Source of the DNA: a virus
Taxonomy: Duplodnaviria; Caudoviricetes
DNA: 64,000 nt
Virus record (IMG/VR): IMGVR_UViG_3300032312_001422
Span: 96,001 to 160,000 of that record
Reading direction: 5' to 3' (one strand)
Shown here: in pieces, positions 39,444 through 63,273 of the stretch
Layout: each line of letters begins with the position of its first letter
Position numbering within the stretch: position 1 is the stretch's first letter
The notes under the pieces: generated by a model
The model's database searches: none
What the model saw: only the letters and a program-made list of their open reading frames with translations
What the model was told of the DNA's origin: nothing
Position numbers and translations under genes: made by a program

Positions 39444-39512
39444 ATACAGAGTCGCTGACTTAATCAGCATGTAGAGCAAGTGTTGGCTCAAAGCAACACA
39501 CATTGGAGAGTT

Positions 39513-47342: not shown

Positions 47343-47356
47343 TGAGGCGTTATAAA

Positions 47357-48547
47357 ATGCGTAAATTATGGTACATGGGGTTGGAGCCCTACAAAGCAAG
47401 ATACACTTTGCAACTACAAGAGTGGAATCGTAGTGTATTTGAACGTCGCGGCATTGATTATGAAATTGTTGAAGGCGAAACACTTTCAAATGACCAAGCC
47501 ATTGTTACAGGACAAGTGCTAGACGCACATGGTCGTACATACTTTGGTATGAGTCAGTTGATGAATCTTGTACGCAAGATGAAACAAGGAGAAGTTACCA
47601 ATGAAGATGTTATCTACTTTGAAGACATGTTTCAACCCGGTATCGAGAGCTTGCCTTACATTATGGATCAAATCGATTCTGCTCATCGTCCTCGCATTGC
47701 CGTTCGTTGCCTTGCACAAAGTATTGACCCCGATGATTTTGTTCATGTGTGGGGTATGCAGAAGTGGATGGGACTTTATGAAAAAATGGTGGATAGTTTT
47801 GCGGATATTATTTTAGCCAGCAACGAAGAGATGGCCATGCACATGAAGGTGGCCGGATGGGAAGGCAACATCTATAATATTTCAGGATTGGCCTTTGGTA
47901 AAGCAGAAGTACGTGGCCGTGTGCCAGGAGAACTAAAGCCATTTCAGGATCGTCGGTATCGTGTGGGATTTGCTGCACGTTGGGATCAAGAAAAGCAACC
48001 AGACTTTTACATGGACTTTATCGAAGCCTGGCATGACAAGTACAAAGATAATTTTCCAATGAATACAGTAGAGTTCTGTATCTTTTCAGGTGCCAAACTA
48101 AAATCAAACAACGACAGCTACATGGCTCGTACAAGAGATTTACAGGCTCGTGGTTTACTAACAGTTTATGAGGACTTGGAAAAAAATGATTACTATGCTT
48201 TGCTTAATAATACTCGTGTATTGTTCAATTGTGCTCTTCAAGACTGGGTCAGCAACACAGTATCGGAGGCAGACACACTCGGCGCTAATGTGCTTTATCC
48301 TGCTTATCGCAGTTTCCCTGAAACTTTTGCTAACGATCATACACGCTTATACGTCCCTTGGTCAATAGACGATGCAATGACCAAGTTGTGGGGTGCGTTG
48401 CAATCACCAAGTCCTAACATGGGCAAGATCAGTGACTGGACAGATGGTTGTATTGATCGGGTTGTAGATATTTTAGAAGGTAAAGGAGAGCAGTGGCGTC
48501 GTATGAGCACTGATTATCGTAAACATACTCATGAAAGCAAATATTAA
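47357..48547 (+). CDS. GT-B glycosyltransferase
   Basis: VIYFED, FAARWDQEKQPDF, VSEADTLGANVLYPAYRSFPE fit the GT-B C-terminal pattern; start moved to ATG 47357. Confidence 0.7.
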   Translation: MRKLWYMGLEPYKARYTLQLQEWNRSVFERRGIDYEIVEGETLSNDQAIVTGQVLDAHGRTYFGMSQLMNLVRKMKQGEVTNEDVIYFEDMFQPGIESLPYIMDQIDSAHRPRIAVRCLAQSIDPDDFVHVWGMQKWMGLYEKMVDSFADIILASNEEMAMHMKVAGWEGNIYNISGLAFGKAEVRGRVPGELKPFQDRRYRVGFAARWDQEKQPDFYMDFIEAWHDKYKDNFPMNTVEFCIFSGAKLKSNNDSYMARTRDLQARGLLTVYEDLEKNDYYALLNNTRVLFNCALQDWVSNTVSEADTLGANVLYPAYRSFPETFANDHTRLYVPWSIDDAMTKLWGALQSPSPNMGKISDWTDGCIDRVVDILEGKGEQWRRMSTDYRKHTHESKY

Positions 48548-49754
48548 AATGACAACCAAAGATATTACCGCAGAACAATTGGTAGCTGTACTCAAATTTA
48601 CACCACGCACATACAAGATCAGTATGTGGGGCTACGGTGGCGAAAAAGTCATGGGCACAGTTAGTCGTGAAGTTTACGATTATTGCGTAGAAAACTGTGT
48701 TGATCTACAGGACATTGCCTGGGGCGACGAAGATCGTGTAGAAGAAATGGGTCTTGACATTGACATGTTGCCATTTACTCCGGGTTCGTGGTATGAATGC
48801 GATGACATGGCACATACCAACGGTGTGAGCCGTAATGCGGGTACACTACAAATCGAAGATGAAAACGGCAATGTTGTTTATGAGCGTAGTCTAGAAGATT
48901 GTGACGGCGGAAGCGATGATAGTCCAGAATGGTCCTGCTTTGATGAAGCATGGATTGGTAGCAAGCCTGCTGGTACTGTGGTATTTGTTGGATGCAGCAA
49001 TGAAAAAGGCACGTTCTTCGAAGGCGAAATTGAATTGACTGAACCGTTTGATATTACCAAACTGACCTTGCAATACGACGAAGTTGATGGTGAAGAACTG
49101 GTCAACTGTGTGCAGTACGATGGTGAGGACATTGACAACTGGGGCGGCAGTACTGACGGCAAGAGTAGTGACTTTGGTATGTATGTTGTGATAGACAGCA
49201 ACACATGGGAAACCTATAGTCCAGAAGAAAAAGACTGGGGTCACCCTGAGTATGGCACTAGCCCAAGCGACTGGGAGAAGTCTGAAACGTTTAAATTTGC
49301 CAAACAGAAACCTACCATTCCAGGTTATTACAATGCAGTATGGAAGCACTACGGAACTACCACCGGGTCGTTGTACTGGGATGGTACGGAGTTTGGCGAG
49401 TGGGAATACGGTAAGTTTAAACCACAAGCAGGTGTTGAGTCTTGGTCGGGCTATAACTGGGACACTAGCTCATGGGTCAATCAACCGCCTGAACCACCCA
49501 ATGTCATTTGCGATAACAAAGAGTGTGGATGGATTGGCAAGAGTGATGAACGCATCACTGATGAAGAGTATAATGATCATTGTCCTAACTGTGAAGGCAC
49601 AGACTTCTCATGGATTGACTATGATCCTGATACCAAAGCGGGTCGTGCCAACCGAGAAAAATTCTGTAAAGAATGGGATCCTGCGGTTGCAATGGATCGT
49701 ATTGTAGCATCCGTGCCCGAGGACGTTGCAACAAAGGCCAAATGGCCATTTTAA
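48531..49754 (+). CDS. Acidic hypothetical protein with C-terminal zinc-ribbon-like motif
   Basis: CDNKEC...CPNC; alternative start at 48549. Confidence 0.7.
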   Translation: MKANIKMTTKDITAEQLVAVLKFTPRTYKISMWGYGGEKVMGTVSREVYDYCVENCVDLQDIAWGDEDRVEEMGLDIDMLPFTPGSWYECDDMAHTNGVSRNAGTLQIEDENGNVVYERSLEDCDGGSDDSPEWSCFDEAWIGSKPAGTVVFVGCSNEKGTFFEGEIELTEPFDITKLTLQYDEVDGEELVNCVQYDGEDIDNWGGSTDGKSSDFGMYVVIDSNTWETYSPEEKDWGHPEYGTSPSDWEKSETFKFAKQKPTIPGYYNAVWKHYGTTTGSLYWDGTEFGEWEYGKFKPQAGVESWSGYNWDTSSWVNQPPEPPNVICDNKECGWIGKSDERITDEEYNDHCPNCEGTDFSWIDYDPDTKAGRANREKFCKEWDPAVAMDRIVASVPEDVATKAKWPF

Positions 49755-49769
49755 CATAAGGAGAATGTT

Positions 49770-50447
49770 ATGAATACAGCAGTATATCGTAGTGCCGCTG
49801 GAATCAATGAAGCAATGGGTCGTGTGTATGGTCACATGAGTGTTGCTGTGATTATCAGTATGATTGTGAGTTATTTTGTAGGATCTAGTCCAGAGTTAGT
49901 TCAATTCTTTTTTACAGGCCTAACAAAATGGATTGTTATCTTTGCTCCGTTAGTGTGTATTTTAGCAATGACATTTGCGTCTGAACGGTTTAGTAAGGGT
50001 GGCCTACAATTATTCTTGTATGCGTTTAGTGCTCTTATGGGTCTGAGCTTTGCCACAATATTTGTCATCTACTCTATGGGCAGTATTGTCACAGCCTTTA
50101 TGGGTGGTGCTGTACTGTTTGGCACCATGAGCATTTATGGTTACTTTACCAAAAAAGATTTGACCAGTGTGGGATCATTTATGTTTGTGGGCTTGATTGC
50201 AATCGTTATTGCCAGCATTGTTAACATTTTTATTGGTAGCACAGTATTGCAAATGGTCATCAGTGCTATTGCTATCGTTGTGTTCTTAGGACTAACTGCA
50301 TACGATACACAAACTATTCGTCAAATAGTAACACGTGACAGCGACACTGGCCGCGAAGAAGTGTTAGGCGCACTTAGCCTATACCTAAACTTTATCAATA
50401 TTTTTATCAGCCTGTTGCAGTTGTTTGGTGGTCGTAATGATGACTGA
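49770..50447 (+). CDS. Bax inhibitor-1/YccA family membrane protein
   Basis: RVYGHM, multiple TM helices, FLGLTAYDTQTI, ALSLYLNFINIFISLLQLFG. Confidence 0.9.
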   Translation: MNTAVYRSAAGINEAMGRVYGHMSVAVIISMIVSYFVGSSPELVQFFFTGLTKWIVIFAPLVCILAMTFASERFSKGGLQLFLYAFSALMGLSFATIFVIYSMGSIVTAFMGGAVLFGTMSIYGYFTKKDLTSVGSFMFVGLIAIVIASIVNIFIGSTVLQMVISAIAIVVFLGLTAYDTQTIRQIVTRDSDTGREEVLGALSLYLNFINIFISLLQLFGGRNDD

Positions 50448-50613
50448 TCCACGCTGTTGCGGTTCAGGCACTTGCATTATTAATGCAGAAGGCGAGTGCT
50501 GGTGCGGACAACGATGGGATGGTACTAAAATGTGCCAACCTTATTATATCAACGAATCCGGTATGAAGGTCAATGCCGTAACAGGAGATCTTATCCATGA
50601 CCAAAAAATTTAG
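50437..50613 (+). CDS. Small Cys-rich hypothetical protein
   Basis: CCGSGTC...CWCG...MC. Confidence 0.5.
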   Translation: MMTDPRCCGSGTCIINAEGECWCGQRWDGTKMCQPYYINESGMKVNAVTGDLIHDQKI

Positions 50614-50736
50614 AATTTGGCTAGCTCGTAAGATTTTAGGCAACCATTGTCCTTGCTATCAAATGGGCTATCACTCAATGGTAGATTTCCAACAGCGTAG
50701 TGCAGATGCTTTAGCCAAACACAAGGCAACAAAAGA

Positions 50737-50940
50737 ATGACAACCTTTACCACCGATGACATTGAAAGTTTAAAGACTGAATGGTTTCCATTTGATTTAG
50801 ATCCTGTCCACGAAGGCGAATACGAAGTAATGAGCTCTGCATGGCCGTGGGTGCATCGTGCAGGGTGGACCAAAAAAAACGGCTGGGGAGATTTACAAAT
50901 TGACCAATGGCGTGGATTAAAGGTACGGATTCCAGAATGA
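50737..50940 (+). CDS. Hypothetical protein
   Basis: 67 aa, ATGA overlap with the galE-like gene. Confidence 0.6.
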   Translation: MTTFTTDDIESLKTEWFPFDLDPVHEGEYEVMSSAWPWVHRAGWTKKNGWGDLQIDQWRGLKVRIPE

Positions 50941-51914
50941 CTAGAAAAGTTGTAGTAACAGGTGGTTGTGGTTACATTGGTAGCCATGTAGCACGAGCAT
51001 TTAAACAGCAAGGCGATCATGTTACTATAATTGATCGAGTCCGACGTGATCACACACTTAAAGATATTGATGGACACTTTATCGGAGACTTTGTCAGTGA
51101 CGGAGCATTGAGTGTACTTATACACGCTGAACCTGATGTGATTGTGCATTGTGCTGGCACCAGCTTGGTAGGACCCAGCATGACCAACCCCGGCGAGTAT
51201 TGGGACAATAACGTGGTAAAGTTTATTAAATTATTAGATGTGGTTAAGAATTTACCCAAGCGACCACTGATCTTGTTCAGTTCAAGTGCCAGTGTGTATG
51301 GCGAACCTAACCGTTTACCAATTCCTGAAACACACAGGATAGACCCAATCAGCCCGTACGGCAATACCAAAGCCACTTGTGAACGCATATTAAAAGACTA
51401 TTACCTAGCTCATGCCGTTCCCAGTGTGTGTTTTAGATTCTTTAATGCTGCAGGTGCTGAGCCTTTTAATTATGACCTTGGCCAAGAACCCAACGCCACA
51501 CACATTGTGGCTCGAGTGCTAGAATCCATGTTGCGTAAAGAAGAATTTGGCCTAAATGGCACAGATTACAAAACACGTGATGGCACTTGTGTCAGAGACT
51601 ACATACACGTATGGGATCTAGCACAGGCACATATTATGGCTGCTGATCGAGCAGGAGAGGCCACCGGATGGGTTGGTGCTCAACAGATCAATCTTGGTAC
51701 CGGCGGTGGTATTAGCAATCAAGAAATTGTCGACTATGTCAAACAACATTACGATCCTGATTTCCGCACAGTTGTGAATTCACCCAGATTGGGAGATCCA
51801 GCTGAATTGGTAGCACAAGCGGATCGAGCCAATGAATGGTTAAATTGGACTGCTGAACACAGCGACATAAGTACTATTATAGACTCAGCTTATAAGTGGT
51901 ATACTCGGGTCTAA
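50937..51914 (+). CDS. galE: UDP-glucose 4-epimerase-like extended SDR
   Basis: VVVTGGCGYIGSH, FSSSASVYG, PYGNTK (YxxxK), FRFFNAAGA, DGTCVRDYIHVWDLA..H; start moved to ATG 50937. Confidence 0.9.
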   Translation: MTRKVVVTGGCGYIGSHVARAFKQQGDHVTIIDRVRRDHTLKDIDGHFIGDFVSDGALSVLIHAEPDVIVHCAGTSLVGPSMTNPGEYWDNNVVKFIKLLDVVKNLPKRPLILFSSSASVYGEPNRLPIPETHRIDPISPYGNTKATCERILKDYYLAHAVPSVCFRFFNAAGAEPFNYDLGQEPNATHIVARVLESMLRKEEFGLNGTDYKTRDGTCVRDYIHVWDLAQAHIMAADRAGEATGWVGAQQINLGTGGGISNQEIVDYVKQHYDPDFRTVVNSPRLGDPAELVAQADRANEWLNWTAEHSDISTIIDSAYKWYTRV

Positions 51915-51930
51915 TCTCCCAAGGCCTACA

Positions 51931-52959
51931 ATGTATCAATACGCAGAACTTGTCCACTGGATGAGAAATCAAGACACCATGAAGATTCTGCCTGCACAGG
52001 TAGACATAGATCTAACCAATGTATGCAATCAAGATTGTTACTATTGCAACTCTGCCGACTTCCGTGCAGAAAAACCTGTGCAAAAGAAATACACAGAATA
52101 CATTGAGTTACTAGACAAGTTGGCTGGTTGGCGAGCACACACGCCTAACAGCTATGGCACAACACACACTATTACCTATCCCGGTGGTGGCGAACCCACT
52201 GTGTTGGTCAGTTACGAAAAGGTTATTGAGCATACTCTAGACCTAGGATTCCTGACCAGTTTAACCACAAATGGCAGTAACTTAGATAGCCTGCTGGATA
52301 CTGTTCATGTAGACAAGTTACGCAAGATGGCCTGGATTGGTATTGATATTGATGCAGGTACAGAACCTTTATATGAACAAATACGACGCAGTTTAACTGC
52401 TCGAAGTTTGTTTACCAAAGTATGCGACAATGCACGTGGCTTGATCGAAGCTGGCGTTAATGTGGACTTTAAGTGTTTGATTAATCCCTTAAATGACACA
52501 GAAGAAGCAATGAATGACCTGTTTCAGTTAGTTGCCGGCCTTGGCGGGCGTATGATATACTTCCGTCCTGTTATCATTGACAGTCAAGCATATCCCATCA
52601 CAGAGGCAACCATTGCTAGACTAGATCGATATAGCAAACTGTACAAACTACCTTACTGGGCCAATCAAAATAAAACATTGCCACGCAACTACAAGAAGTG
52701 TCACCAGATGTTTCACTTTCCTGTGTTTTGTGCTGATGGAAAAATTTATATCTGTTGTGAAGGCAAAGGCAATCCACAATTTGAATTGACCAATTGGGAC
52801 TCGGGTGACTTCCGCGATAGCTGGCTAAATGAACGTCATTATGACATATACAATAAAACCCGTGTGGAGTTTTGTGCTCCGTGCAGGCCAAATATCAGCA
52901 ACATACAAATACAAAACATTTTAGACAATCCCAAAAAAATAGAGACCTTATACCTATGA
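51931..52959 (+). CDS. Radical SAM protein with C-terminal SPASM-like domain
   Basis: CNQDCYYC, GGGEP, LTTNG; KC...DGKIYICC...CAPC. Confidence 0.88.
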   Translation: MYQYAELVHWMRNQDTMKILPAQVDIDLTNVCNQDCYYCNSADFRAEKPVQKKYTEYIELLDKLAGWRAHTPNSYGTTHTITYPGGGEPTVLVSYEKVIEHTLDLGFLTSLTTNGSNLDSLLDTVHVDKLRKMAWIGIDIDAGTEPLYEQIRRSLTARSLFTKVCDNARGLIEAGVNVDFKCLINPLNDTEEAMNDLFQLVAGLGGRMIYFRPVIIDSQAYPITEATIARLDRYSKLYKLPYWANQNKTLPRNYKKCHQMFHFPVFCADGKIYICCEGKGNPQFELTNWDSGDFRDSWLNERHYDIYNKTRVEFCAPCRPNISNIQIQNILDNPKKIETLYL

Positions 52960-53318
52960 ATATCACATTTCCTGTTATTGAATTATTTGATCGCCTGGCC
53001 ATTGCTGACGTTAAGTTTAAACGCACTGGAGGTGCCAATGCTGAAGAACTGACTTGGTACATGAATCAAGCAATAGCATATGACATTGAAAAAATTGAAG
53101 ATCTATATACAAATCTTGTGGGCATACACAACGAAATATGGGAATTGGAATCACTGCTCAAAACAGGACGTGAGCAAGAATTAGGACTAGAAGAAATTGG
53201 CCGTCGTGCCATTGCCATTAGAGATCACAACAACAAACGTATTGCCATTAAAAATGCCATTGCTGAACGACTTGAATGCCTAGTACGTGAAATAAAACAA
53301 GATCACCTAAGCGAATAG
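52956..53318 (+). CDS. Small helical protein (resembles DUF6165-type proteins)
   Basis: IELFDRLAIADVK...IWELE...IRDHNNKRIAIKNAI; start moved to ATG 52956. Confidence 0.55.
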   Translation: MNITFPVIELFDRLAIADVKFKRTGGANAEELTWYMNQAIAYDIEKIEDLYTNLVGIHNEIWELESLLKTGREQELGLEEIGRRAIAIRDHNNKRIAIKNAIAERLECLVREIKQDHLSE

Positions 53319-54392
53319 TTTGTCAAGCATGGTTCTTGAAACCTTACCGGCGGCATTCTTAGGTACTTCGTCAACTTCTTTGAGCACAGTTGGATAACAG
53401 TATTGCCCCATAGACACTAATACTGTTTTAATTTGCGTTTTATTGTACGGGCCACTGTATACACATTTTACAGAGTCTGTGCCAAATACTGCCAGGTCTT
53501 TAAGATCAGGAAACACAGCATATAGTTTGTTTTCTAGGCTTAAAGGATCTAATTTGTAGCCGCGAACATTAATACGATCTACACTACGTCCTAGAATTCG
53601 AAAATAGCCTGCTTCATCTTGTTCGGCCAAATCTCCGGTGTCGAGCCAATCCGAATTAGCCACACTAGGACCTCGTATCAGTAGTTTACTTTGTTCAATA
53701 CGTGCTTCTACTCCATCAGGTAAACCCACTGTACCTATGCGTTGTTCTCCATCCAGCGGATTGGTCAAACAGTGACTACATGATTCTGTCATGCCAAAAC
53801 TTTCAACAATAGGCACACCAAACTGTTCTTTCATAGCAGAATACAGTTGCGGAGGTAAAGCAGAGCTAGCACTACGAACAAATCGTAAACTATCAAACCT
53901 TTGTTTCATCAGGGCTTTTAATATATCTGGAATACCAGTAATAAATGTAGGACTGTATTTGGATACTTCTTGTAATCGTCCAATGGGCAAAAATGTTGTT
54001 TCCATACCAATCATGCGACTCATCCAATACATCATTTGGCCGTGTGCATGCCATAGGCTCATTACACCAACATAACGATCATTGGCAGTAAGATTATAGG
54101 ATTTGATTATTTGACCACATACATAATTGACTTGCTGTTCGGTAAAACTGTAAAATTTACTATCGCCAGTTGTGCCTGAAGTATACCAGTAGACTTTTTC
54201 TCCAGGGTACTCAGCACCATCCCGCTCTTGTATGTTGTCGGCCGTGACCAATAGGCTCCAATCCGAATTGTTTAACAGGTATTGGTTTCGGTCAGCCGGC
54301 GCTGCAGGATTCAATACCATAATGCTATAATTTTTATCATATAGTGGTATGTAGTCCCAGGGGTTGGGTACACAAATGACAGCTCTTTTCAT
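53307..54392 (-). CDS. Adenylate-forming (acyl-CoA synthetase-like) enzyme, compact
   Basis: YTSGTTGDSK, ESFGMTE, DTGDL, GRSVDRINVRG, PKNAAGKV. Confidence 0.9.
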   Translation of the reverse strand: MKRAVICVPNPWDYIPLYDKNYSIMVLNPAAPADRNQYLLNNSDWSLLVTADNIQERDGAEYPGEKVYWYTSGTTGDSKFYSFTEQQVNYVCGQIIKSYNLTANDRYVGVMSLWHAHGQMMYWMSRMIGMETTFLPIGRLQEVSKYSPTFITGIPDILKALMKQRFDSLRFVRSASSALPPQLYSAMKEQFGVPIVESFGMTESCSHCLTNPLDGEQRIGTVGLPDGVEARIEQSKLLIRGPSVANSDWLDTGDLAEQDEAGYFRILGRSVDRINVRGYKLDPLSLENKLYAVFPDLKDLAVFGTDSVKCVYSGPYNKTQIKTVLVSMGQYCYPTVLKEVDEVPKNAAGKVSRTMLDKLFA

Positions 54393-54448
54393 TGGATTTT
54401 ATTAGTTGATATGGTATTTATATTTCGATAAAAAATTATCAACACGTA

Positions 54449-54477
54449 TTGACTTGTAGATCTAAATACTGTATAAT
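54449..54477 (+). promoter_or_regulatory. Sigma70-like promoter TTGACT-N17-TATAAT with nested TAAATA
   Basis: Between divergent genes; ATG 54490 lies 12 nt after the -10. Confidence 0.65.
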
Positions 54478-54489
54478 GTTAACATCAAA

Positions 54490-55410
54490 ATGAATAAACC
54501 TACACTTATAAATCTTAAAAATTTACCATACGGTGGTGCACAGTATGTACCCAGCAACGAACGAGAACAATTTGTTCGTCATAGTATCAAAGTATCAGCA
54601 GACAGCTTATGGTTACCACAGTTACAAGATGAATTTCTTGTTGCATATCGTCAATGGATTGGTGCTACCAAACTAAACACCATCGCAGGCCTAGACAAAT
54701 TTCCCGTATCAGCAGTTGCTCAAGGAACCACCGAAGCATTTGATAAATTTTATCTTAAAAATTCTGCTCGTCGTTTGAGATATTTCAAAGGTGAGTACAT
54801 GTATCATCAAGTGGCTGGAAGACAATACTTTGGAAGCGCCAGTACATTTATCGAAGATGAAGCACTGGACATTAATGATGCAGTGGTTGTCAGTTTGCCA
54901 TTCAGTGATACCGGCAATGAACATCCAAAAATGAAGGCCATGCTTGCGGAATGTACAAGATTGGGTATTCCAGTGTTGATGGATTGTGCATATTTTGGTA
55001 TTTGCAGTGGCATTGATTTTGATGTTGATCACGATTGTATCACAGACATAACCTTTAGTCTGAGCAAGACATTTCCAGTTCCCCATTTGCGTATTGGCAT
55101 GCGATTGACACGTGTCGATGATGATGACGCACTACTGGTCACAAACAAAACACAATATGTCAATCGGTTGAGCGTGGCAGTTGGGCTAGAACTCATACAA
55201 ATGTGGGACTGTGATACTATTCCCAATTTGTATTTGGAGACTCAAAAAGAATTTTGCAAAGCATTAGAAGTCGAACCAAGTAATTGTGTTATTTTTGGCA
55301 TAGACACTACTGAAAAATGGAAACAATACAATCGTGGTGGAGCAACCAATCGTTTATGTTTTGCCAAATACCTGCACGAAAAACAATTACCCATTGACTT
55401 CACAGTCTAA
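54490..55410 (+). CDS. PLP-dependent fold-type I enzyme (aminotransferase/decarboxylase-like)
   Basis: GTTEAF, VLMDCAY, TFSLSKTF...RIG. Confidence 0.7.
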   Translation: MNKPTLINLKNLPYGGAQYVPSNEREQFVRHSIKVSADSLWLPQLQDEFLVAYRQWIGATKLNTIAGLDKFPVSAVAQGTTEAFDKFYLKNSARRLRYFKGEYMYHQVAGRQYFGSASTFIEDEALDINDAVVVSLPFSDTGNEHPKMKAMLAECTRLGIPVLMDCAYFGICSGIDFDVDHDCITDITFSLSKTFPVPHLRIGMRLTRVDDDDALLVTNKTQYVNRLSVAVGLELIQMWDCDTIPNLYLETQKEFCKALEVEPSNCVIFGIDTTEKWKQYNRGGATNRLCFAKYLHEKQLPIDFTV

Positions 55411-55422
55411 ATATTATACAAT
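55394..55422 (+). promoter_or_regulatory. Sigma70-like promoter TTGACT-N17-TACAAT with nested TAAATA for folE
   Basis: -35 at 55394-55399, -10 at 55417-55422. Confidence 0.65.
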
Positions 55423-55459
55423 AATACAAAGTCATCCACGACACTAACTCGGAGAATAA

Positions 55460-56302
55460 ATGTCCAAAAATAAAGATAAAAACAAAGATAAAAATAAAAA
55501 TAAAGATCTACTATTTGATGCAATCAAAGCTACACAATACGTAAATGAAGCACCGTATCATCCCGGATACGAAGATGCTGTAATGCACATGAGCGATAAA
55601 GGTTACGAAGAAGGCAAGTATCTAGCCGATGCTATCCGATTTAATATGAAGCGTGATAAAAAACGTTTCTGGGCTGGTGACAACATCAGTGAATACTTGC
55701 ATGAAGGTGATAAAGAACGACTAATCGATGAAGCTACAGAAGCTTTTGAACGAGTGTTAGATACCTTGCTGATTGATCGTGAGAATGATCCTAACTCAAA
55801 AGGTACAGCACGTCGTTTGGCCAAGATGTATTTTAACGAAATTATGGAGGGCAGATATGCTCCAGCGCCAGATGCAACAGCTTTTCCAAATGATTCAGCG
55901 GATAGATACGAAGGTATGCTTGTGGTTCGTAGCGAACTGCGTTCTATGTGCAGTCACCATCATCAGCCTGTGTCTGGTGTTGCTTACATCGGAATCATTG
56001 CCGCAAATAAACTTATTGGCTTGTCTAAATATACTAGGATCGCTCAGTGGTGTGCTCGTCGTGGCACACTTCAAGAAGAACTATGTAACGACATCGCAAG
56101 AGAAATAATGCGGGCCACTGAATCAGAAAACGTGGGTGTGTATATCCAAGCGGTACACGGGTGCTGTGAGAATCGTGGCATTATGGCACACTCTAGTCTA
56201 ACGCAGACTACTGTGTTGCGTGGTAGTTTTCAAACAGACCCAGGAACCAAAAAAGAGTTCATGGACAATATTAAACTACAACAGGACTTTGCTCCTCGTT
56301 AA
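55460..56302 (+). CDS. folE: GTP cyclohydrolase I (type IA)
   Basis: SMCSHHHQP, GLSKYTRI, RRGTLQEEL, HGCCENRG; N-terminal KNKD low-complexity repeat. Confidence 0.95.
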   Translation: MSKNKDKNKDKNKNKDLLFDAIKATQYVNEAPYHPGYEDAVMHMSDKGYEEGKYLADAIRFNMKRDKKRFWAGDNISEYLHEGDKERLIDEATEAFERVLDTLLIDRENDPNSKGTARRLAKMYFNEIMEGRYAPAPDATAFPNDSADRYEGMLVVRSELRSMCSHHHQPVSGVAYIGIIAANKLIGLSKYTRIAQWCARRGTLQEELCNDIAREIMRATESENVGVYIQAVHGCCENRGIMAHSSLTQTTVLRGSFQTDPGTKKEFMDNIKLQQDFAPR

Positions 56303-56316
56303 GGAACATAACTACA

Positions 56317-56979
56317 ATGTTAGAAACCATATGTGAAGTATTAGAAGATGCGTACAAACGCAATTGGATTACCAGCCGTGATGGCAATGTGAGTATTCGT
56401 CATCACGACCGCGATCATTTCTACATCACTCCTAGTGGTGTGCGTAAACAGACACTACAACCTGATCAGTTTAAGAAAATTATAATTAAACCTCCAATGA
56501 CTTGGAACGAACCAGGCACAGGTTTATTAGCAGAACGTTGGGGGTGGAAAGAAGACACCTACACCGATATTAGTTCTAAACTACGACCCAGTGGAGAGAT
56601 TCCTTTGCATTTTGGTCTACAGAAACAGATGGGACAACACTTGGGAGAAGTCCGAGTAGTGGTACATGTGCATCCTACCTACTGCATTGCGGCCATGCAT
56701 GCCGGCATTGATTTGAGTACTGTGAGTGCGGCATTTCCAGAACTCAATCGATATACTCGGGTAGCACCCAATGTACCGGATGTTCCGCCAATCAGTCAAG
56801 AGCTTGCAGATAAATGTTTTGAAAAGCTAGGCCTAGATGATCAAGGTAACATTGCCTATGACATTGTGGGCATCAAAGGGCATGGAGTAGTTGCTATTGA
56901 TACAAGTCCGTGGCGTGCCTATGAGCACATAGAGCGATTAGAACACATTTGCAAGATTGTATTGGCCTCTAAAACATGA
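56317..56979 (+). CDS. Class II aldolase/adducin family metalloenzyme
   Basis: SRDGNVS, ITPSG, PSGE...H, VVHVHPTY, KGHGVV. Confidence 0.88.
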   Translation: MLETICEVLEDAYKRNWITSRDGNVSIRHHDRDHFYITPSGVRKQTLQPDQFKKIIIKPPMTWNEPGTGLLAERWGWKEDTYTDISSKLRPSGEIPLHFGLQKQMGQHLGEVRVVVHVHPTYCIAAMHAGIDLSTVSAAFPELNRYTRVAPNVPDVPPISQELADKCFEKLGLDDQGNIAYDIVGIKGHGVVAIDTSPWRAYEHIERLEHICKIVLASKT

Positions 56980-57305
56980 TACCTAAAAGTTGGCGCATAG
57001 GATTTTTTAACTGGCTTGGTGCAGGCAAAATAACATTAACAGTAGATAAACCACAGGAATACTCAATGGGAAATACATACACAATAGGCGGTGGTGGAGC
57101 AGGGTTGGGCGGCCTTCAGCTTAATCCATCAACTCCACAAAGTAGTCAAACAATGACTGTCAAGATTACTCCAGCCAACGGTGGCACTATTGTTCAAATG
57201 CTAACTAGCGAATATAGCAACGGAGAGTTATATATTATTCCAGACGGAATAGACTTTGATAGGGAACTAGGTAAAATTATCACTATGAGCAAATTAAAAT
57301 CATGA
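56976..57305 (+). CDS. Hypothetical protein
   Basis: ATGA-coupled ORF. Confidence 0.55.
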   Translation: MIPKSWRIGFFNWLGAGKITLTVDKPQEYSMGNTYTIGGGGAGLGGLQLNPSTPQSSQTMTVKITPANGGTIVQMLTSEYSNGELYIIPDGIDFDRELGKIITMSKLKS

Positions 57306-57529
57306 TTACACAAAGCCTACAGGCTGTTATAACAGAAGTATCCGACCTATGGTCTTGGATGATTGGCATTGTTGCTGGTTGGGGTCTAACATTTACTCTT
57401 GTGGTCGCTGTACTGATATATGCACACATCAGAATTTCTAGATTGCAACGTAAGGTAACACAGCTTGAAAATCGTCATGTAACAGATGAGCGGGACCTTA
57501 GCTTACGTATAAGGAAGTTTGAAAAATGA
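57302..57529 (+). CDS. Small membrane protein
   Basis: One TM helix followed by a coiled coil. Confidence 0.6.
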   Translation: MITQSLQAVITEVSDLWSWMIGIVAGWGLTFTLVVAVLIYAHIRISRLQRKVTQLENRHVTDERDLSLRIRKFEK

Positions 57530-57615
57530 AATTAGGTGAACTAATCTCTATGGTTATTTTTGGAATTATCTTGGTTGCATTTATTTTTTATCAATATGGA
57601 CATCATGTAAAATGA
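57526..57615 (+). CDS. 29-aa single-TM protein, not in ORF track
   Basis: MKLGELISMVIFGIILVAFIFYQYGHHVK; ATGA overlaps with both neighbours. Confidence 0.55.
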   Translation: MKLGELISMVIFGIILVAFIFYQYGHHVK

Positions 57616-58166
57616 GTAAAGTATATTACAAAGAATCAACAATTCGATCTTGGGTACACGATATTATCCGTGCTGTGAACGCAGATAATTGGCGCCCCGA
57701 TTATATTGTAGGTCTAACTCGCGGTGGACTAGTTCCTGCTGTGATGCTGAGTCATTACTTGGATGTACCAATGCATGCTCTTAAAGTAAGCCTACGTGAC
57801 GGCGATCATGGACCAGAAAGCAATGCATGGATGGCCGAAGATGCATTCGGTTGGATTGAAGGCGGGTATCGAGGGTTGGGTGGTGACGGTGCGTTTGATT
57901 TTACTATGCATGCTAAAAACATTCTTATAGTAGATGATATCAATGATACCGGCGCTACACTAAACTGGATTCGCAAAGATTGGCAAAGCAGTTGCTTACC
58001 CGATAACTCACGTTGGGAAAATGTATTTGGTAATAACGTTCGCTTTGCTGTATTAATCAATAACGAAGCCAGCGAGTTCACGGACGTGGACTATGTGGGC
58101 ATGTCAATAAACAAACTGGAAGAACCCATCTGGTGTGTTTTTCCTTGGGAAGAATGGTGGAGATAA
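57612..58166 (+). CDS. Type I phosphoribosyltransferase (xanthine-guanine PRTase-like)
   Basis: IVGLTRGGLVPAVMLSHYL; PRPP loop ILIVDDINDTGATL; VFPWE. Confidence 0.88.
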   Translation: MSKVYYKESTIRSWVHDIIRAVNADNWRPDYIVGLTRGGLVPAVMLSHYLDVPMHALKVSLRDGDHGPESNAWMAEDAFGWIEGGYRGLGGDGAFDFTMHAKNILIVDDINDTGATLNWIRKDWQSSCLPDNSRWENVFGNNVRFAVLINNEASEFTDVDYVGMSINKLEEPIWCVFPWEEWWR

Positions 58167-58185
58167 ATAGTTATATCCCCAAAAC

Positions 58186-58249
58186 AGCGGTCTTGGCGTC
58201 ATTCCCGCTTGATAAATTCTGCCGCCTATGCTATAATTAACATAGGAGA
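58186..58249 (+). promoter_or_regulatory. Candidate preQ1-I-like pseudoknot riboswitch with SD-sequestering hairpin upstream of queD
   Basis: AGCGG/CCGCT stem, loop UC...C, pseudoknot UGGCG/UGCCG, then CCTATG/CATAGG hairpin over AGGAG. Confidence 0.5.
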
Positions 58250-58254
58250 AATCA

Positions 58255-58704
58255 ATGGCAAAGTATTACTCAACAAAACATTACGGACACAACATTGGAT
58301 TGAGTGCTGTATTTAGACAGCCCAATGCCGATCATAGTCACTGTCACTTGCTACATGGCTACAGTCTAGCGTTTACATTCACATTTGGTTGTGATCAGCT
58401 AGACAACAAAAACTGGGCAGTGGACTTTGGCAGTCTCAAAGAACTAAAAGCCTGGCTAGAAGATCACTTTGATCACAAATTGGCTCTGGATCAACAAGAT
58501 CCGCACTTGTCCAAGTTCGAAGAATTACAAGCATTGGATCTGGTAGAGATCAGAATATTTGATGGTGTGGGTGCAGAGAAGTTTGCCGAGCATGCTTTCA
58601 ATTTTGCCGATCGATTGATTAGAGAAAAGACCGATGGTCGTTGCTATTGTGTCAGAGCAGAATGTGCCGAACACGGAGCCAATAGTGCAATCTACGAAGG
58701 TTAA
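58255..58704 (+). CDS. queD: 6-carboxy-5,6,7,8-tetrahydropterin synthase
   Basis: HCHLLHGYS, VDFGSLKELK..L...FDH, AEKFAE, AEHGANSAIY. Confidence 0.88.
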   Translation: MAKYYSTKHYGHNIGLSAVFRQPNADHSHCHLLHGYSLAFTFTFGCDQLDNKNWAVDFGSLKELKAWLEDHFDHKLALDQQDPHLSKFEELQALDLVEIRIFDGVGAEKFAEHAFNFADRLIREKTDGRCYCVRAECAEHGANSAIYEG

Positions 58705-58960
58705 CGAAATCTTGGACATATTGCAAGAGGAGTGCGGTGAAGTTATTGTTGCTATCAGCAAAATTCGCCGTTTTGGTATTGACAATACGTACAAGGATGG
58801 TGGTACCCAGCGTGAACACCTGGTACAAGAACTAGGCGATGTTACATTGCTAGTAGAATTACTCAAGGCACACAATATTTTTACAGAAGCAGAATTACAT
58901 GAAGCACAAGTGAGAAAAAGTCAAAAATTAACACAATGGTCGAAAATATATGAAGATTAA
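58685..58960 (+). CDS. MazG-like all-alpha NTP pyrophosphohydrolase
   Basis: LQEECGEV...QELGDV; GTG start at 58685 with GGAG 6 nt upstream. Confidence 0.72.
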   Translation: MQSTKVNEILDILQEECGEVIVAISKIRRFGIDNTYKDGGTQREHLVQELGDVTLLVELLKAHNIFTEAELHEAQVRKSQKLTQWSKIYED

Positions 58961-59810
58961 AGTCAGTGAAATATTTTATAGTTTACAAGGCGAAGGTCGC
59001 TTTGTTGGAGTACCCAGTGTATTCCTTAGAACCTATGGCTGTAACTTTACCTGTTCAGGTTTTGGATGCAAGCCTGGAGAAAAGTCAACAGGTGCCGATG
59101 AGGTTGCTAAAAAGGTTGAACTGTACAAGACATTTACGGACTTGCCCTTGGTAGAAACAGGATGCGACAGCTATGCGTCATGGCACCCTGCTTACAAGCA
59201 TCTAAGTCCAACACTGACCACAGAAGAACTTGTGGAAAAGATGTTGACCTTGACTCCCAACAACCAGTGGGCCCAGAACAATGGCAATGATGTACACTTG
59301 GTTATCACAGGCGGTGAACCTTTGCTAGGTTGGCAACGTGCCTATGCAGAACTGCTGAGTCATCCCAGAATGGCAGACTTAAAAAATATCACATTTGAAA
59401 CCAATGGCACACAAGAACTACACGAAGACTTTAGAGATTATTTGATCGATTGGGCCAGTGACAAAGCTGGTCGTGAAGTTACATTCAGTGTCAGTGCCAA
59501 ACTGAGTGCAAGCGGCGAGACTTGGGAAGATGCTATCAAACCCAAGATTGTCAATATCTATCAAACTTACGGACATACCTATCTTAAATTTGTGGTAGAA
59601 ACAGAAGACCATGTAACTGAAGCAGTCCGTGCTGTGGACGCCTTTAGACATGATGGCTTCAAAGGAGTTGTATACTTGATGCCACAGGGCGGTGTAGTTG
59701 ATCCATACGAATCAAATAAACTAAACATTGCCAACATCTGTTGCAAACTGGGATTCAACTATAGCCCACGCTTGCATGTGGATCTCTGGGGCAACGGCTG
59801 GGGCAAATAA
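58950..59810 (+). CDS. queE: 7-carboxy-7-deazaguanine synthase (radical SAM)
   Basis: EIFYSLQGEG..VG.PSVFLRTYGCNFTC...GCDS, VITGGEPLL, FETNGT, LKFVV, LMPQG, SPRLHVDLW. Confidence 0.9.
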   Translation: MKIKVSEIFYSLQGEGRFVGVPSVFLRTYGCNFTCSGFGCKPGEKSTGADEVAKKVELYKTFTDLPLVETGCDSYASWHPAYKHLSPTLTTEELVEKMLTLTPNNQWAQNNGNDVHLVITGGEPLLGWQRAYAELLSHPRMADLKNITFETNGTQELHEDFRDYLIDWASDKAGREVTFSVSAKLSASGETWEDAIKPKIVNIYQTYGHTYLKFVVETEDHVTEAVRAVDAFRHDGFKGVVYLMPQGGVVDPYESNKLNIANICCKLGFNYSPRLHVDLWGNGWGK

Positions 59811-59811
59811 T

Positions 59812-60036
59812 ATGGCTCCCATACCGGGCATGGACCGATATGATCAGTTTCATGCACGAGCCGACTGGGATTACGTATTTGTCTGGTGGCCGAAACAATG
59901 TGAACTCACTAACCGTCAAATCTGGTTGCAACATGCATATCGTGGCACAGCAGTCTGGGTCGGCCCCGGTGAACCTGTGTTTGAATACAGATATCATGCT
60001 CCCCAGGAACACTTAATTTGGCAACTACAACAGTGA
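59812..60036 (+). CDS. Hypothetical protein
   Basis: ATG one base after the queE stop; 74 aa. Confidence 0.55.
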   Translation: MAPIPGMDRYDQFHARADWDYVFVWWPKQCELTNRQIWLQHAYRGTAVWVGPGEPVFEYRYHAPQEHLIWQLQQ

Positions 60037-60518
60037 CTGAAAAAAAATCCAATGTCACCGACGGACGAGAGAGTTTTGACGTCACAGTTGGCAATACCTT
60101 GGTTGCGTTTTTTAATCGCAACGTAAGCACGTATCCCACTGAAGCGGGTGGACCCAAGTTTGATCTTATTCCCGTTGAAAAGCAAAAAGACATCATGGTC
60201 AATGTGGCCCGTATGTATGCTCAACAGGAATACGACCGTATTACAGAATTGGTAACAGTATTACAAAAACAAGCAGCAGAACTCAAGCGTCGATTAGATA
60301 TTACCGACATGGTACATGCCGCCAAGTACGAGTTCCAAGTGTATCACGGCCAAACCTATTGGTTGGCTTACGAACACAACAAACAAGGCACTAGATTGAC
60401 CCACTTGGGCCCAAATGATTGGACCACAGGTGCGCCTGCAGATTATGAATATATTTGCCAGGTCAAGTGGTTGGGTGATTACACCTGGGTAGAAGTAACA
60501 GAACAGGATGCAAAATGA
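60018..60518 (+). CDS. Hypothetical protein (DUF2452-like)
   Basis: YPTEAGGPKF...QEYDRI...YEFQVYHGQTYWL. Confidence 0.65.
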   Translation: MATTTVTEKKSNVTDGRESFDVTVGNTLVAFFNRNVSTYPTEAGGPKFDLIPVEKQKDIMVNVARMYAQQEYDRITELVTVLQKQAAELKRRLDITDMVHAAKYEFQVYHGQTYWLAYEHNKQGTRLTHLGPNDWTTGAPADYEYICQVKWLGDYTWVEVTEQDAK

Positions 60519-61477
60519 ATAAAATGATGATTTGGCCCGTGTGGGCAGTGGCAGTATTGACCACTTGGTTATACCTGATCTTGACCGGACCAGGTTTTGC
60601 CTTGTATGACACACACTGGCTGTATGCGGTTATGATGATATTTGGTTCAGCCATAGCCGGCTTCACTCCCGAGGGTGGCGGTGCTGTGGCATTTCCCATT
60701 CTGAGCCTGTACTTTAATATCACCCCGCCTGCGGCTAGAGACTTTAGTCTAGCCATACAAAGCATTGGCATGGTATCAGCGGCCATATGGATCTTGACAC
60801 GCAAAGGGCATGACCTACGAACATTTAGACACGTACCGTTCTATGCGGCTGTGAACATGATTGGTTTTGTGCTTATGACCACTGTGGCCGGTGCTGTTGC
60901 TTTCAAAACCGTACAGATGTTGTTTGTGAGTCTGGCCTTGGCCTTTATTGTGGCCTACTTGATCAGCCGTGGTCGTGGCACCGTGGATGATGTCGAACTC
61001 AAAGGTTCCCAATTTGTTACTTTTACAATATTTTCATTCATAGGTGGTTGTGCCTCTGCCATGTTCGGCACAGGCAGTGACATGTTGATTTACATTGCGT
61101 TGACCTGCTACTACGGCATGAAGGAAAAGATCAGCACAGACATCAGCATTGTGCTCATGGCTGTGATCACTGTGTTTGGCATTGCCTATCGTGGTTTGTT
61201 TTTGGATGCTGTACACCCGGACGTTTATTTGATGTGGTTGGCAGCTGCCCCGGTGGTGTTGTTTTTTGCTCCATTTGGTAACATACTGTTGGGATGGGTC
61301 CGTAAAGAAACCATGTTGTACACAGTACTGGCCATGAATGCTGTAAACTATTTTTACTTTATGAGTAAAAATCTAAATATGCTGACACCAACTGTGATAA
61401 CACTGGCATCATTTGTAATATTTTTTGTAGCAAGTTTTTACATTAAGAACATAAGGAATAAAAATGGGAATATTTGA
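60515..61477 (+). CDS. TauE/SafE family (sulfite exporter-like) membrane protein
   Basis: AGFTPEGGGAVAFP and SAMFGTGSDM repeat motifs; many TM helices. Confidence 0.8.
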   Translation: MNKMMIWPVWAVAVLTTWLYLILTGPGFALYDTHWLYAVMMIFGSAIAGFTPEGGGAVAFPILSLYFNITPPAARDFSLAIQSIGMVSAAIWILTRKGHDLRTFRHVPFYAAVNMIGFVLMTTVAGAVAFKTVQMLFVSLALAFIVAYLISRGRGTVDDVELKGSQFVTFTIFSFIGGCASAMFGTGSDMLIYIALTCYYGMKEKISTDISIVLMAVITVFGIAYRGLFLDAVHPDVYLMWLAAAPVVLFFAPFGNILLGWVRKETMLYTVLAMNAVNYFYFMSKNLNMLTPTVITLASFVIFFVASFYIKNIRNKNGNI

Positions 61478-61850
61478 TCGCTTTAAAAAGAAACCCGAAA
61501 CAAAACCAGAAGCACCCAAGACTCGAAAAAAATCTGCCAAGGACTTGGCCACAGAAAAGGGTGAACCTTATGTGGCAATTCTTAGTGTGGACCTAGATCC
61601 CGACAACATTGGCAACGGTGCATTTGAGCTAGACTGGAATGACAAGTTTATTGCCAATCTGGTACGTGCTGGTTATCAACACAAGCCCGCAGACACAGAT
61701 GCAGACATGGTAGACCGTTGGTTTGCTGATGTATGTAAAAATGTAGTGGCAGAAAACTTTGAACAATGGGAAGCCAATCAACCCTTTGATGCACGTCCAC
61801 GCAATATTGAACGCAGAGATATCGGCGACGGTCGCACTGAAGTATCGTGA
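61464..61850 (+). CDS. Hypothetical protein
   Basis: AAGGA SD, 128 aa. Confidence 0.7.
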   Translation: MGIFDRFKKKPETKPEAPKTRKKSAKDLATEKGEPYVAILSVDLDPDNIGNGAFELDWNDKFIANLVRAGYQHKPADTDADMVDRWFADVCKNVVAENFEQWEANQPFDARPRNIERRDIGDGRTEVS

Positions 61851-62575
61851 TACTGTATGTGAATGGCGATAGCCATAGTGCCGGTGCAGAATTAGCACAA
61901 GTTCGCAATGGAGTGCTATCAGAGTTCAACGACGACACTCGGCAGTATCAACCAGCACAAGGAAGTCAACACTGGCAAGCTGAATGTGTTAAACGCAGTT
62001 ACAGTCAACAGTTGGCCAATCACTTGGGTGCAGAGCTGGTTTGTGAAGCAGAGTCCGGTGGCAGTAGTGCAAGAACGCTACGAGTCACCCGCGAATATCT
62101 CAAACACAATCGTCCTGACCTTTTGGTTATTGGCTGGAGTCCAATTGAACGGGAAGAGTGGTGGCACAATGGTGTTGCATATCAAGTAACTGGGGGTGGT
62201 GTTAAATCAGTTCCTGCAGAGTTGGCTGACAGATACAAGCAATGGGTAATCAATAATTCTACACCCAGTGCCATCAATGCCAAGGCCGTGGCATTGCACA
62301 AAGAGATATTTGATTTCCATCAAGAATTACTTGAGATAGACGTACCACATGTGTTTTTTAACACATTCAACAGTTTTGAATTCATTGCTGACATGGGTGG
62401 CTCACCTGTTGACTGGAATGACTGTTTTGTTGAACCTTATTTGGAATCCTATACTTATTGTTTGTGGTTAAAAAATCAAAATTATCAAACAGTCAATTTG
62501 TCCAGCATGCATTTTGGTCCAGCCGGACATCGTGCCTGGGCCGATTTCTTATATCAACACTATTGTAAAAAATGA
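61847..62575 (+). CDS. SGNH/GDSL hydrolase-like protein
   Basis: ILYVNGDSHSAG, LLVIGWS, HFGPAGH; GTG start. Confidence 0.7.
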   Translation: MILYVNGDSHSAGAELAQVRNGVLSEFNDDTRQYQPAQGSQHWQAECVKRSYSQQLANHLGAELVCEAESGGSSARTLRVTREYLKHNRPDLLVIGWSPIEREEWWHNGVAYQVTGGGVKSVPAELADRYKQWVINNSTPSAINAKAVALHKEIFDFHQELLEIDVPHVFFNTFNSFEFIADMGGSPVDWNDCFVEPYLESYTYCLWLKNQNYQTVNLSSMHFGPAGHRAWADFLYQHYCKK

Positions 62576-63273
62576 TCTTATACGTAAATGGTGACAGTCA
62601 TAGTGCTGGTGCAGAAGCAGTAAACACATATTCGTTTGCTCGAGACGATAGCTTGTACTGGAACATGGATCGAGAACCGCATCCAGATAATCTACGTGTC
62701 AGCTACGGCTGTGAGTTGGCCAATATGCTGGGTGCCATACTACAATGTGATGCCGAGTCAGCAAGTAGCAACGACAGAATCGTTCGTACCACTTATGAAT
62801 CGCTTGACATTGTAAAACCCGAGTTGGTCATCATTGGGTGGTCAACATGGGAACGCGAAGAGTGGTGGCACGAAGGCACCCAACAGTATTGGCAAGTCAA
62901 TGCTGGTGGTGTTGGTGAAGATTGGCCGGCAGAAATCAAAGATCAATACCAGGGTTATATTTTAAACATCAACTACGATCATGCTGTTAGAAACGCACAC
63001 GAAAAAATACACCAACTGCATAGATATCTTGACCAGAGCAAGATACCACACATATTTTTCAATACCTTTGAGCCGTTTACAAAAACCTTAAAATTTGAAT
63101 GGGGCAACAGTTACATACACCCATACAATCCAGAATACACTTACTACAATTGGTTAAAGCAACGGGGATTCGAAACGGTTCGTCCCGGATCATACCATTT
63201 TGGTCCAGAGGCACATCGTGCTTGGGCTGAATTTTTATACCAAAATTATGTCCAAACGCTGTTGACAACTTAA
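62572..63273 (+). CDS. SGNH/GDSL hydrolase-like protein, tandem paralogue
   Basis: ILYVNGDSHSAG, LVIIGWS, HFGPEAH. Confidence 0.7.
   Translation: MILYVNGDSHSAGAEAVNTYSFARDDSLYWNMDREPHPDNLRVSYGCELANMLGAILQCDAESASSNDRIVRTTYESLDIVKPELVIIGWSTWEREEWWHEGTQQYWQVNAGGVGEDWPAEIKDQYQGYILNINYDHAVRNAHEKIHQLHRYLDQSKIPHIFFNTFEPFTKTLKFEWGNSYIHPYNPEYTYYNWLKQRGFETVRPGSYHFGPEAHRAWAEFLYQNYVQTLLTT

Follow-up and report, generated by a model that had tools for sequence, protein, structure and literature searches.

The DNA analysed here (the window) is a stretch of 64,000 nucleotides, bases 96001-160000 of the 288.8-kb IMG/VR virus record IMGVR_UViG_3300032312_001422, for which the completeness estimate is 80%. 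Our subject is a small phosphoribosyltransferase (PRT) encoded in this window among genes for the synthesis of 7-deazaguanine. A preliminary description of the sequence had proposed that a Gpt-like PRT is followed by queD, a gene for a MazG-like pyrophosphohydrolase and queE. All four open reading frames (ORFs) lie where it placed them, and their matches to the PRT, QueD, MazG-like and QueE families are well beyond chance. The features on which the argument depends are, in order along the window:

39480-42173, plus strand: family B DNA polymerase (PolB; PF00136, PF03104); the cassette sits within this replication module.
44481-46097, plus strand: protein of the tRNA-guanine transglycosylase (TGT) superfamily, 538 residues, candidate DNA guanine transglycosylase (TGT motifs, predicted fold).
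46094-46609, plus strand: p171, a conserved 171-residue protein encoded between the TGT-like and DpdL-like genes.
46573-47070, plus strand: DpdL-like T-fold protein, proposed decarboxylase of 7-carboxy-7-deazaguanine (CDG) (phiST DpdL by tblastn, E 8e-13; phrog_17812, E 6e-34).
55460-56302, plus strand: FolE, GTP cyclohydrolase I (PF01227, E 5.5e-39; NF006824, E 2e-39).
57612-58166, plus strand: mini 6-oxopurine-type PRT, 184 residues (PF00156, E 4.4e-12; phrog_8995, E 6e-15).
58255-58704, plus strand: QueD, 6-carboxytetrahydropterin synthase (PF01242, E 1e-13; phrog_2389, E 2e-38).
58685-58960 (longest ORF 58634-58960), plus strand: small single-domain MazG-like NTP pyrophosphohydrolase (PF03819, E 2e-5; phrog_4856, E 7e-20).
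58950-59810, plus strand: QueE, CDG synthase (phrog_2076, E 7e-53; N-terminal QueE NCBIfam matches).

Along the window the genes run PolB, clamp, TGT-like, p171, DpdL-like, sugar genes, FolE, PRT, QueD, MazG-like, QueE and then a 5'-3' exonuclease. PolB shares 52% identity with that of Sinorhizobium phage Phosso, 47% with that of Agrobacterium phage Atu_ph07 and approximately 42% with those of further jumbo T4-like phages, and these identities class the source as an uncultured jumbo myovirus of the T4 superfamily. Comparison of the region with 50,697 phage records by megablast gave zero matches, and there are no tRNA genes in the window.

The DpdL-like protein carries the motif LANPHRHIF. This agrees with LxxxHRHxF, the signature of DpdL paralogues, which replaces the QueD motif CxxxHGH (Cui, Hutinet et al., NAR 2023, PMC10516641; hereafter Cui et al., 2023). 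QueD is 45% identical to QueD of phage phiST and QueE is 47% identical to QueE of Synechococcus phage BUCT-ZZ01. No QueC was found in the 289-kb record (approximately 80% complete), where the best match (11.5 bits, E 0.028) is under the cut-off. The lack of QueC, together with a DpdL-like gene and a TGT-fold gene near PolB, indicates a QueC-less DpdL gene set of the phiST type. The best explanation of the sequence is that a 7-deazaguanine DNA-modification cassette of the QueC-less DpdL type has its downstream half in the window, and the phage probably replaces guanine in its own DNA with 7-deazaguanine.

In phiST, which is of the QueC-less DpdL/DpdA3 type, all guanine is replaced by dDG (Cui et al., 2023, PMC10516641). 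Like the window, phiST lacks QueC and has FolE, QueD, QueE, a DpdL paralogue that bears the LxxxHRHxF signature and a TGT-superfamily gene near the polymerase, as well as a MazG-like gene in the cluster and a small PRT in the genome. The two differ in other respects. The transglycosylase has 538 residues in the window and 259 residues in phiST (DpdA3), with no detectable similarity between them. The two MazG proteins are not detectably related, and a tblastn search of the window genome with phiST MazG and the phiST kinase-like protein gave no significant match. The PRT gene is within the cassette in the window but approximately 17 kb from the cluster in phiST. Finally, the dDG chemistry is known for phiST, whereas the window phage is known from its genes alone.

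The preliminary description had also placed a TGT beside these genes. Such a gene exists but it is not adjacent; it lies 11.5 kb upstream, beside PolB. A search of the whole 289-kb record with the Pfam TGT family gave no match and had first suggested that there is no transglycosylase in the genome, but the motifs and predicted fold of the 538-residue ORF point to a divergent one. The TGT-like motifs LGDSGGFQ and FDCASP..NGQ are invariant in 22 homologues, and all of the 50 Foldseek matches listed for the predicted model are tRNA-guanine transglycosylases, albeit weak ones (best E 0.02, probability at most 0.97). The protein is 36% identical to gp168 of the Pseudomonas jumbo phage PA5oct. It has no match among PDB sequences by phmmer or by profile, and hhalign matched it to phiST DpdA3 over 12 residues only (1% probability).

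The PRT scores 46 bits against PF00156 (gathering threshold 26.3), which places it among the type I phosphoribosyltransferases. Its motifs are TRGGL (the pyrophosphate loop) and ILIVDDINDTGAT, the motif that binds phosphoribosyl pyrophosphate (PRPP), in which two acidic residues are followed by D-[ST]-G-x-T. The best NCBIfam match, xanthine PRT NF006613, scores 32.4 bits and is far under the cut-off of 138, and among sequences of solved structure it is closest to the archaeal purine PRTs 1VDM (E 5e-10) and 4Z1O. Judged on sequence, the protein is Gpt-like and not a Gpt orthologue. It shares the RGG loop, the acidic dyad and the Asp-Thr-Gly PRPP motif with E. coli Gpt/XGPRT, Pyrococcus horikoshii 1VDM and Sulfolobus GpT-2 4Z1O, and a C-terminal FPWE hood is common to the window PRT and the cellular and archaeal 6-oxopurine PRTs. 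Unlike the cellular PRTs, however, the mini-PRT family is essentially phage-borne and linked to deazaguanine genes, and it carries a family-specific loop (ESNAWMAEDAFG) and a Trp/Cys-rich insert.

Across 62 distinct homologues, conservation of residues D108, D109, D112, G114 and T116 is 98% or higher. D112, three residues past the acidic dyad, is invariant in these 62, including those of PA5oct, BUCT-ZZ01 and phiST, and we take its position to be equivalent to D137 of HGPRT and D92 of XGPRT. The 6-oxopurine PRTs use this catalytic Asp on purine N7. The catalytic motifs are intact in the window PRT and in 62 of 62 near homologues, and the protein looks like an active member of a phage-specific mini-PRT family.

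More distant members are less uniform. A family scan of 1.84 billion representatives gave 1683 clusters at E 1e-3 or better. The active site was compared in the 143 best clusters that span its motif. In 103 of these the acidic dyad, the catalytic Asp and [ST]G are all retained; about 19 (approximately 13%) are without the acidic PRPP-binding dyad, and many of those are also without RGG. The equivalent of D112 is lost in a minority of distant family members. Many of the degenerate clusters still hold the family-specific loop motif ESNxWMAEDAF. The family might instead have a non-catalytic role, in which the protein binds a base or PRPP as an accessory and acts as a sensor or as a partner of FolE or of the transglycosylase; the window copy would then only look active. 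The clusters that have lost the dyad and RGG while keeping the loop motif and their place in the cassette, for example at locus L201, are consistent with this, as is the existence of a physical PRT-FolE fusion (in phage 033B, described below). However, every catalytic motif is kept in the window PRT and all of its near homologues, the larger part of the 143 clusters is intact and so is the FolE-fused domain of 033B. A non-catalytic role for the family is in our judgement very improbable.

Locus L201 (5513-9511) belongs to a distant relative and has a gene for a degenerate NN-motif PRT, followed by genes for a HIT-family nucleotide hydrolase, FolE, QueE and S-adenosylmethionine (SAM) synthetase, with sugar genes on the other side. 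The SAM synthetase gives that phage its own SAM supply for the radical-SAM step. With MazG here and a HIT protein in L201, differing nucleotide hydrolases therefore occupy the place beside the PRT.

The order FolE..PRT..QueD-MazG-QueE recurs in dozens of related contigs. We retrieved 80 IMG/VR loci through the PRT (45-91% PRT identity), and these show PolB, clamp, TGT-like, p171, DpdL, variable sugar genes, FolE, PRT, QueD (not in all), QueE, p128 and the 5'-3' exonuclease. Twenty-five of the PRT loci extend to the region of the TGT-like and DpdL genes, and all 25 have both genes. Family members at 35-36% identity still adjoin FolE or QueE. The family also recurs in unrelated phages with deazaguanine genes: gp163 of PA5oct is a PRT of the same family, immediately 5' of QueE, the order in BUCT-ZZ01 is QueE-PRT-x-QueD-FolE, and that in Flavobacterium phage immuto_2-6A is PRT-FolE. 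In Vibrio phage 033B, a QueC-positive member of the Queuovirinae with DpdA next door, a complete mini-PRT is fused to the N-terminus of FolE and its motifs (RGG, VDDIIDSGAT and FPWE) are intact. In all, a PRT-family gene adjoins or is fused to FolE or QueE in at least five unrelated lineages.

The genomes of phiST and CP220 also hold members of the family. That of CP220 was found with the family profile (E 5e-25) and is missed by a six-frame search with Pfam PF00156; calls of absence therefore rest on the family profile. Complete guanine replacement has been measured in three phage groups, represented by phiST, CP220 and immuto_2-6A (Cui et al., 2023, Table 1 and text, PMC10516641), and the PRT family is found in all three. 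The phiST PRT matches only 34 of the 50,697 phage records, namely phiST-like phages, Campylobacter Firehammerviruses, immuto phages, two Brevundimonas phages, BUCT-ZZ01, two gut phages and five Queuovirinae vibriophages, and most of the records inspected carry deazaguanine genes. This rarity bears on the idea that the PRT is a generic auxiliary enzyme of purine salvage, which boosts the nucleotide supply for a large genome and whose position in the cassette is incidental. Genes of nucleotide metabolism are frequent in phages, the phiST PRT is apart from the Que genes and two genes from ribonucleotide reductase, and the CP220 PRT adjoins unrelated genes, all of which would agree with such a role. 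It is, however, hard to reconcile with a family that is so rare, that keeps company with deazaguanine genes and that is joined to FolE or QueE in so many unrelated lineages, and we think generic salvage most unlikely.

The PRT is not present in all relatives. Loci retrieved through the TGT-like protein form a sister group in which QueD is directly 3' of FolE and the gap between QueD and QueE holds sugar-nucleotide genes. In four contigs of this group (49-149 kb) with a complete cassette, no PRT was found by Pfam or by the family profile. Nor did the family profile find a PRT in 12 isolates, which are the Vibrio phages 2.275.O and nt-1 and ten phages with a DpdL-like gene (Phosso, RHph_I1_18, ACP17, Bakedbeans, X1, BCSR5, Ahp1, D479, Roos and MA9V-3). 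Thus, as far as gene content indicates, the PRT is dispensable among close relatives. Since it is missing from relatives with an otherwise identical cassette, and since catalytic residues are lost in part of the family, the PRT would be a helper and not an obligatory step.

The modification system itself is known, but the recurrent membership of the PRT is undiscussed in the open literature searched, in which we found no account that connects a PRT or guanine salvage with the deazaguanine genes of phages. The part of the text of Cui et al. (2023; PMC10516641) that was searched makes no mention of a PRT.

What we observe is gene identity, synteny, co-occurrence and motif conservation; from these we infer the substrate choice of the PRT, a recycling loop, DNA as the target of the TGT-like enzyme and any role for MazG. 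The reading that we favour, and to which we give an even chance, is that the PRT salvages the guanine expelled by a DNA transglycosylase back towards GTP and FolE. FolE, QueD and QueE would convert GTP to CDG, DpdL would presumably decarboxylate CDG to 7-deazaguanine and the TGT-fold enzyme would swap 7-deazaguanine for guanine in DNA. The PRT would then join the expelled guanine to PRPP to give GMP, which host or phage kinases would bring back to GTP, the substrate of FolE. Guanine is both a competitor in the exchange and its product, and its removal would pull replacement towards completion. Because one guanine would be freed per exchange and one GTP spent per deaza base, salvage would close the loop and cut to about half what a fully substituted genome costs in guanine nucleotides.

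Several observations are consistent with guanine salvage. A TGT-fold gene always accompanies the PRT where the locus reaches that far, the Asp directed at N7 is retained and the PRT appears dispensable in close relatives. Additionally, every DpdA tested so far inserts preQ0 into DNA (Cui et al., 2023, PMC10516641), and the fusion of the PRT to FolE in Queuovirinae of the DpdA1/QueC type therefore fits salvage that feeds FolE and does not fit a route through deoxynucleoside triphosphates (dNTPs). The preliminary description had offered recycling of TGT-released guanine as the second of its readings, together with sanitising of the nucleotide pool. The comparative evidence fits the recycling better than the dNTP route that it had put first. 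The part given to MazG is weakly supported.

Other observations weigh against salvage. Hosts normally have their own Gpt or Hpt, so a phage copy is not obviously needed. The AlphaFold model of the TGT-like protein, on which the exchange step would depend, is of low confidence (pLDDT 57). Approximately 28% of the 143 best clusters show some degenerate motif and yet stay in cassettes, which is odd for purely catalytic salvage. The clusters of phiST and immuto_2-6A also hold kinase-like genes, and the tie to the three fully substituted groups would be explained at least as naturally by a route at the level of the nucleotide. Finally, DpdL with DpdA gave no dDG in E. coli (Cui et al., 2023, PMC10516641).

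The nucleotide-level route is the principal alternative. Here the PRT would join CDG or 7-deazaguanine to PRPP, kinases and ribonucleotide reductase would make 7-deaza-dGTP, PolB would incorporate it and MazG would lower dGTP, leaving the TGT-like enzyme merely to mop up residual guanine or to act elsewhere. Complete base replacement in phages, such as hydroxymethylcytosine in T4 and Z in S-2L, is made at the nucleotide level, which counts for this route. So do the presence of the PRT family in every group with measured 100% replacement and its absence from nt-1, the only partly modified phage tested. The phiST cluster has an AAA_18-type kinase-like gene and a MazG-like gene, and that of immuto_2-6A has an annotated 'thymidylate kinase' and a 'hydrolase'. 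The failure in E. coli mentioned above is also in its favour, as is the report of the ADG nucleoside in CP220-infected cells (Cui et al., 2023, PMC10516641), and a modified-dGTP proposal for Campylobacter phages is cited in Hutinet 2019.

A further parallel comes from the nucleoside antibiotics tubercidin and toyocamycin. Like the window, the TubE/ToyH clusters combine a PF00156 PRT with homologues of GTP cyclohydrolase I, QueD and QueE, and the tubercidin pathway is without QueC and includes a nucleotide hydrolase, with which TubE, a PRT specific for CDG, works (PMC6112128). Unlike the window, these clusters make free nucleosides, have no transglycosylase and encode a UbiD decarboxylase as well as a GMP reductase (PMC6112128). 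We set TubE/ToyH beside the window PRT by Pfam family and description only.

Much of the comparative evidence, however, does not suit the nucleotide-level route. TubE rejects 7-deazaguanine (PMC6112128). On this route the TGT-fold gene, a companion of the PRT in 25 of 25 loci, would be left without a main function. Close relatives that share the cassette, and ten isolates that carry DpdL, do without the PRT; members of its family are fused to FolE in DpdA1-type Queuovirinae, and the Asp directed at N7 is invariant. No kinase family, and thus no dedicated kinase for a modified nucleoside monophosphate, was recognised among those ORFs of the cassette that were scanned with Pfam, PHROGs and NCBIfam, several small ones of which carry no assignment. 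MazG is absent from most PRT-bearing relatives, and its fold neighbours are cleaners of the dCTP/dATP type. We therefore regard the pre-replicative route as rather unlikely. The same tentative standing applies to its stronger form, in which the mini-PRT would be the missing entry step and the genomes of phiST, CP220, the immuto-type phages and the present jumbo-phage clade would be polymerised from 7-deaza-dGTP, with the transglycosylase finishing the replacement.

The two kinase-like genes lie within the deazaguanine clusters of their phages. CGPG_00066 of phiST (L010, 26382-26861) encodes a P-loop kinase-like protein (AAA_18/AAA_33) and is listed only as unknown in Cui et al. (2023; PMC10516641). 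Gene gp203 of immuto_2-6A (L205, 12618-13142) also encodes a P-loop kinase-like protein and is annotated as thymidylate kinase.

The MazG-like protein scores 25.1 bits against PF03819, just above the cut-off of 22. Translation probably starts at GTG 58685, which has GGAG upstream, and not at ATG 58634, because the first 17 residues of the longest ORF are unconserved and the homologous stretch of L024 contains a stop. An overlap with the end of queD had been described and is present; measured from the likely GTG start it is approximately 20 nt and not 71. The motif is EECGE...ELGD, and E15, E16, E19, E49 and D52 (EExxE..ExxD) are invariant in 13 homologues. The AlphaFold model (pLDDT 92.9) is a three-helix unit. 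The top ten Foldseek rows are all of the MazG type (E 0.4-0.7, weak) and the best matches are YpjD, Bacillus MazG, HisE, iMazG and DCTPP1; there are no dGTP-specific (MazZ-like) enzymes among the matches listed. The best structural neighbours, B. subtilis YpjD (2GTA), integron iMazG (2Q9L) and DCTPP1 (7MU5/6SQW), have the same EExxE..ExxD metal motif, with weak Foldseek E-values (0.4-1) and no sequence-level PDB match, either with the single sequence or with a profile.

This is the only MazG gene in the 289-kb record. Its presence in relatives falls with PRT identity: it was found in 17 of 17 loci at 70% identity or above, in 8 of 17 at 58-70% and in 1 of 38 below 58%. This distribution marks the gene, as judged from the loci compared, as a recent insertion between queD and queE that is confined to the nearest relatives. 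The MazG-like family also adjoins primase in many Karamvirus-type T4-like phages, the records of which are annotated without deazaguanine genes, and PA5oct and Phosso have their MazG genes at other places in the genome, with no detectable relationship to that of the window. Enzymes that exclude a canonical dNTP are familiar from base-replacing phages, for example the dCTPase gp56 of T4 and MazZ and DatZ of Z-genome phages. By description the window MazG is like these, as a small nucleotide pyrophosphohydrolase beside genes of modified-base synthesis. Unlike them, it is absent from the majority of relatives that have this pathway, and members of its family are also found where no deazaguanine genes are annotated. 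On the basis of its model the protein is a (d)NTP pyrophosphohydrolase of the house-cleaning type, not core to the pathway. A role in the removal of dGTP is not supported, and neither, as a conserved pair, is the partnership between PRT and MazG that had been proposed from their flanking of queD, since the two are found together in near relatives only.

The remaining genes of the region were also considered. FolE has an N-terminal extension of approximately 90 residues (window 55460-55740) with a K/D/N-rich repeat, KNKDKNKDKNKNKD, at its beginning; the extension has no match to the PRT profile. A gene for a protein of the class II aldolase/adducin family (56317-56979) separates folE from the PRT gene. 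Among the 80 loci a single other one (L050) shows it, and it is therefore a rare insertion. Approximately 38 of the more distant PRT-bearing loci (L059-L099) have folE, queE and DpdL, but no queD was recognised within 10 kb, even by a QueD profile; the missing queD may be located elsewhere or supplied by the host. The spacer between the PRT gene and queD contains one candidate site:

58209-58237, plus strand: sigma-70-like promoter consensus TTGATA-17-TATAAT with an extended -10 TG, in the PRT-queD spacer (58164-58257).

This site matches at 11 of 12 positions and is the best in 55300-60600, but the regional total of such sites is not above that of shuffled sequences and it is a consensus match only. 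There are no Rfam families in the window, including the spacer at a relaxed threshold, and Rfam thus lends no support to a riboswitch of the preQ1 type in the spacer.

In almost all related loci the p171 gene keeps company with the genes for the TGT-like and DpdL-like proteins. The protein has no Pfam or PHROG assignment and no Walker motif, and its look-alikes in a protein atlas all scored below 0.9 and were not used. From the DpdL-like gene to folE there is a sugar-related block (window 47324-55410) that encodes two 407-residue proteins, a GalE-like epimerase, a viperin-like/SPASM radical SAM protein, an AMP-ligase on the minus strand and a 306-residue ORF with an SLSK motif that resembles a pyridoxal phosphate-dependent aminotransferase. 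In relatives the slots of this block hold genes for a C-methyltransferase, a cupin, UDP-glucose dehydrogenase, DegT and a thiamine pyrophosphate enzyme. This suggests a variable sugar decoration. A Bax1-inhibitor-family membrane protein is encoded at 49770-50447 and a TauE/SafE-type permease at 60515-61477. Directly 3' of queE is a gene for a DUF2452 protein (60018-60518), and two tandem DUF6071 paralogues (61847-63273) lie upstream of the 5'-3' exonuclease gene; both are conserved in nearer relatives. The phage further encodes a ClpB-like double AAA+ chaperone (24055-26346).

It is not settled how some phages exchange all of their guanine for a 7-deazaguanine. The proposed enzymes of the DpdA3 type failed in heterologous tests and 'other unknown enzymes' were invoked (Cui et al., 2023, PMC10516641). 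All of the fully substituted groups have the PRT, and in many other phages it lies within the pathway or is fused to it; it is therefore a concrete candidate for such an enzyme. Which it prefers, guanine or a deaza base, would directly tell a recycling helper from an enzyme of a pre-replicative route. The question is of practical interest for the enzymatic production of fully 7-deaza-substituted DNA and for the prediction from sequence of phage genomes that resist restriction. Should the nucleotide-level reading be true, it would overturn the published view that 7-deazaguanine modification of DNA is wholly post-replicative.

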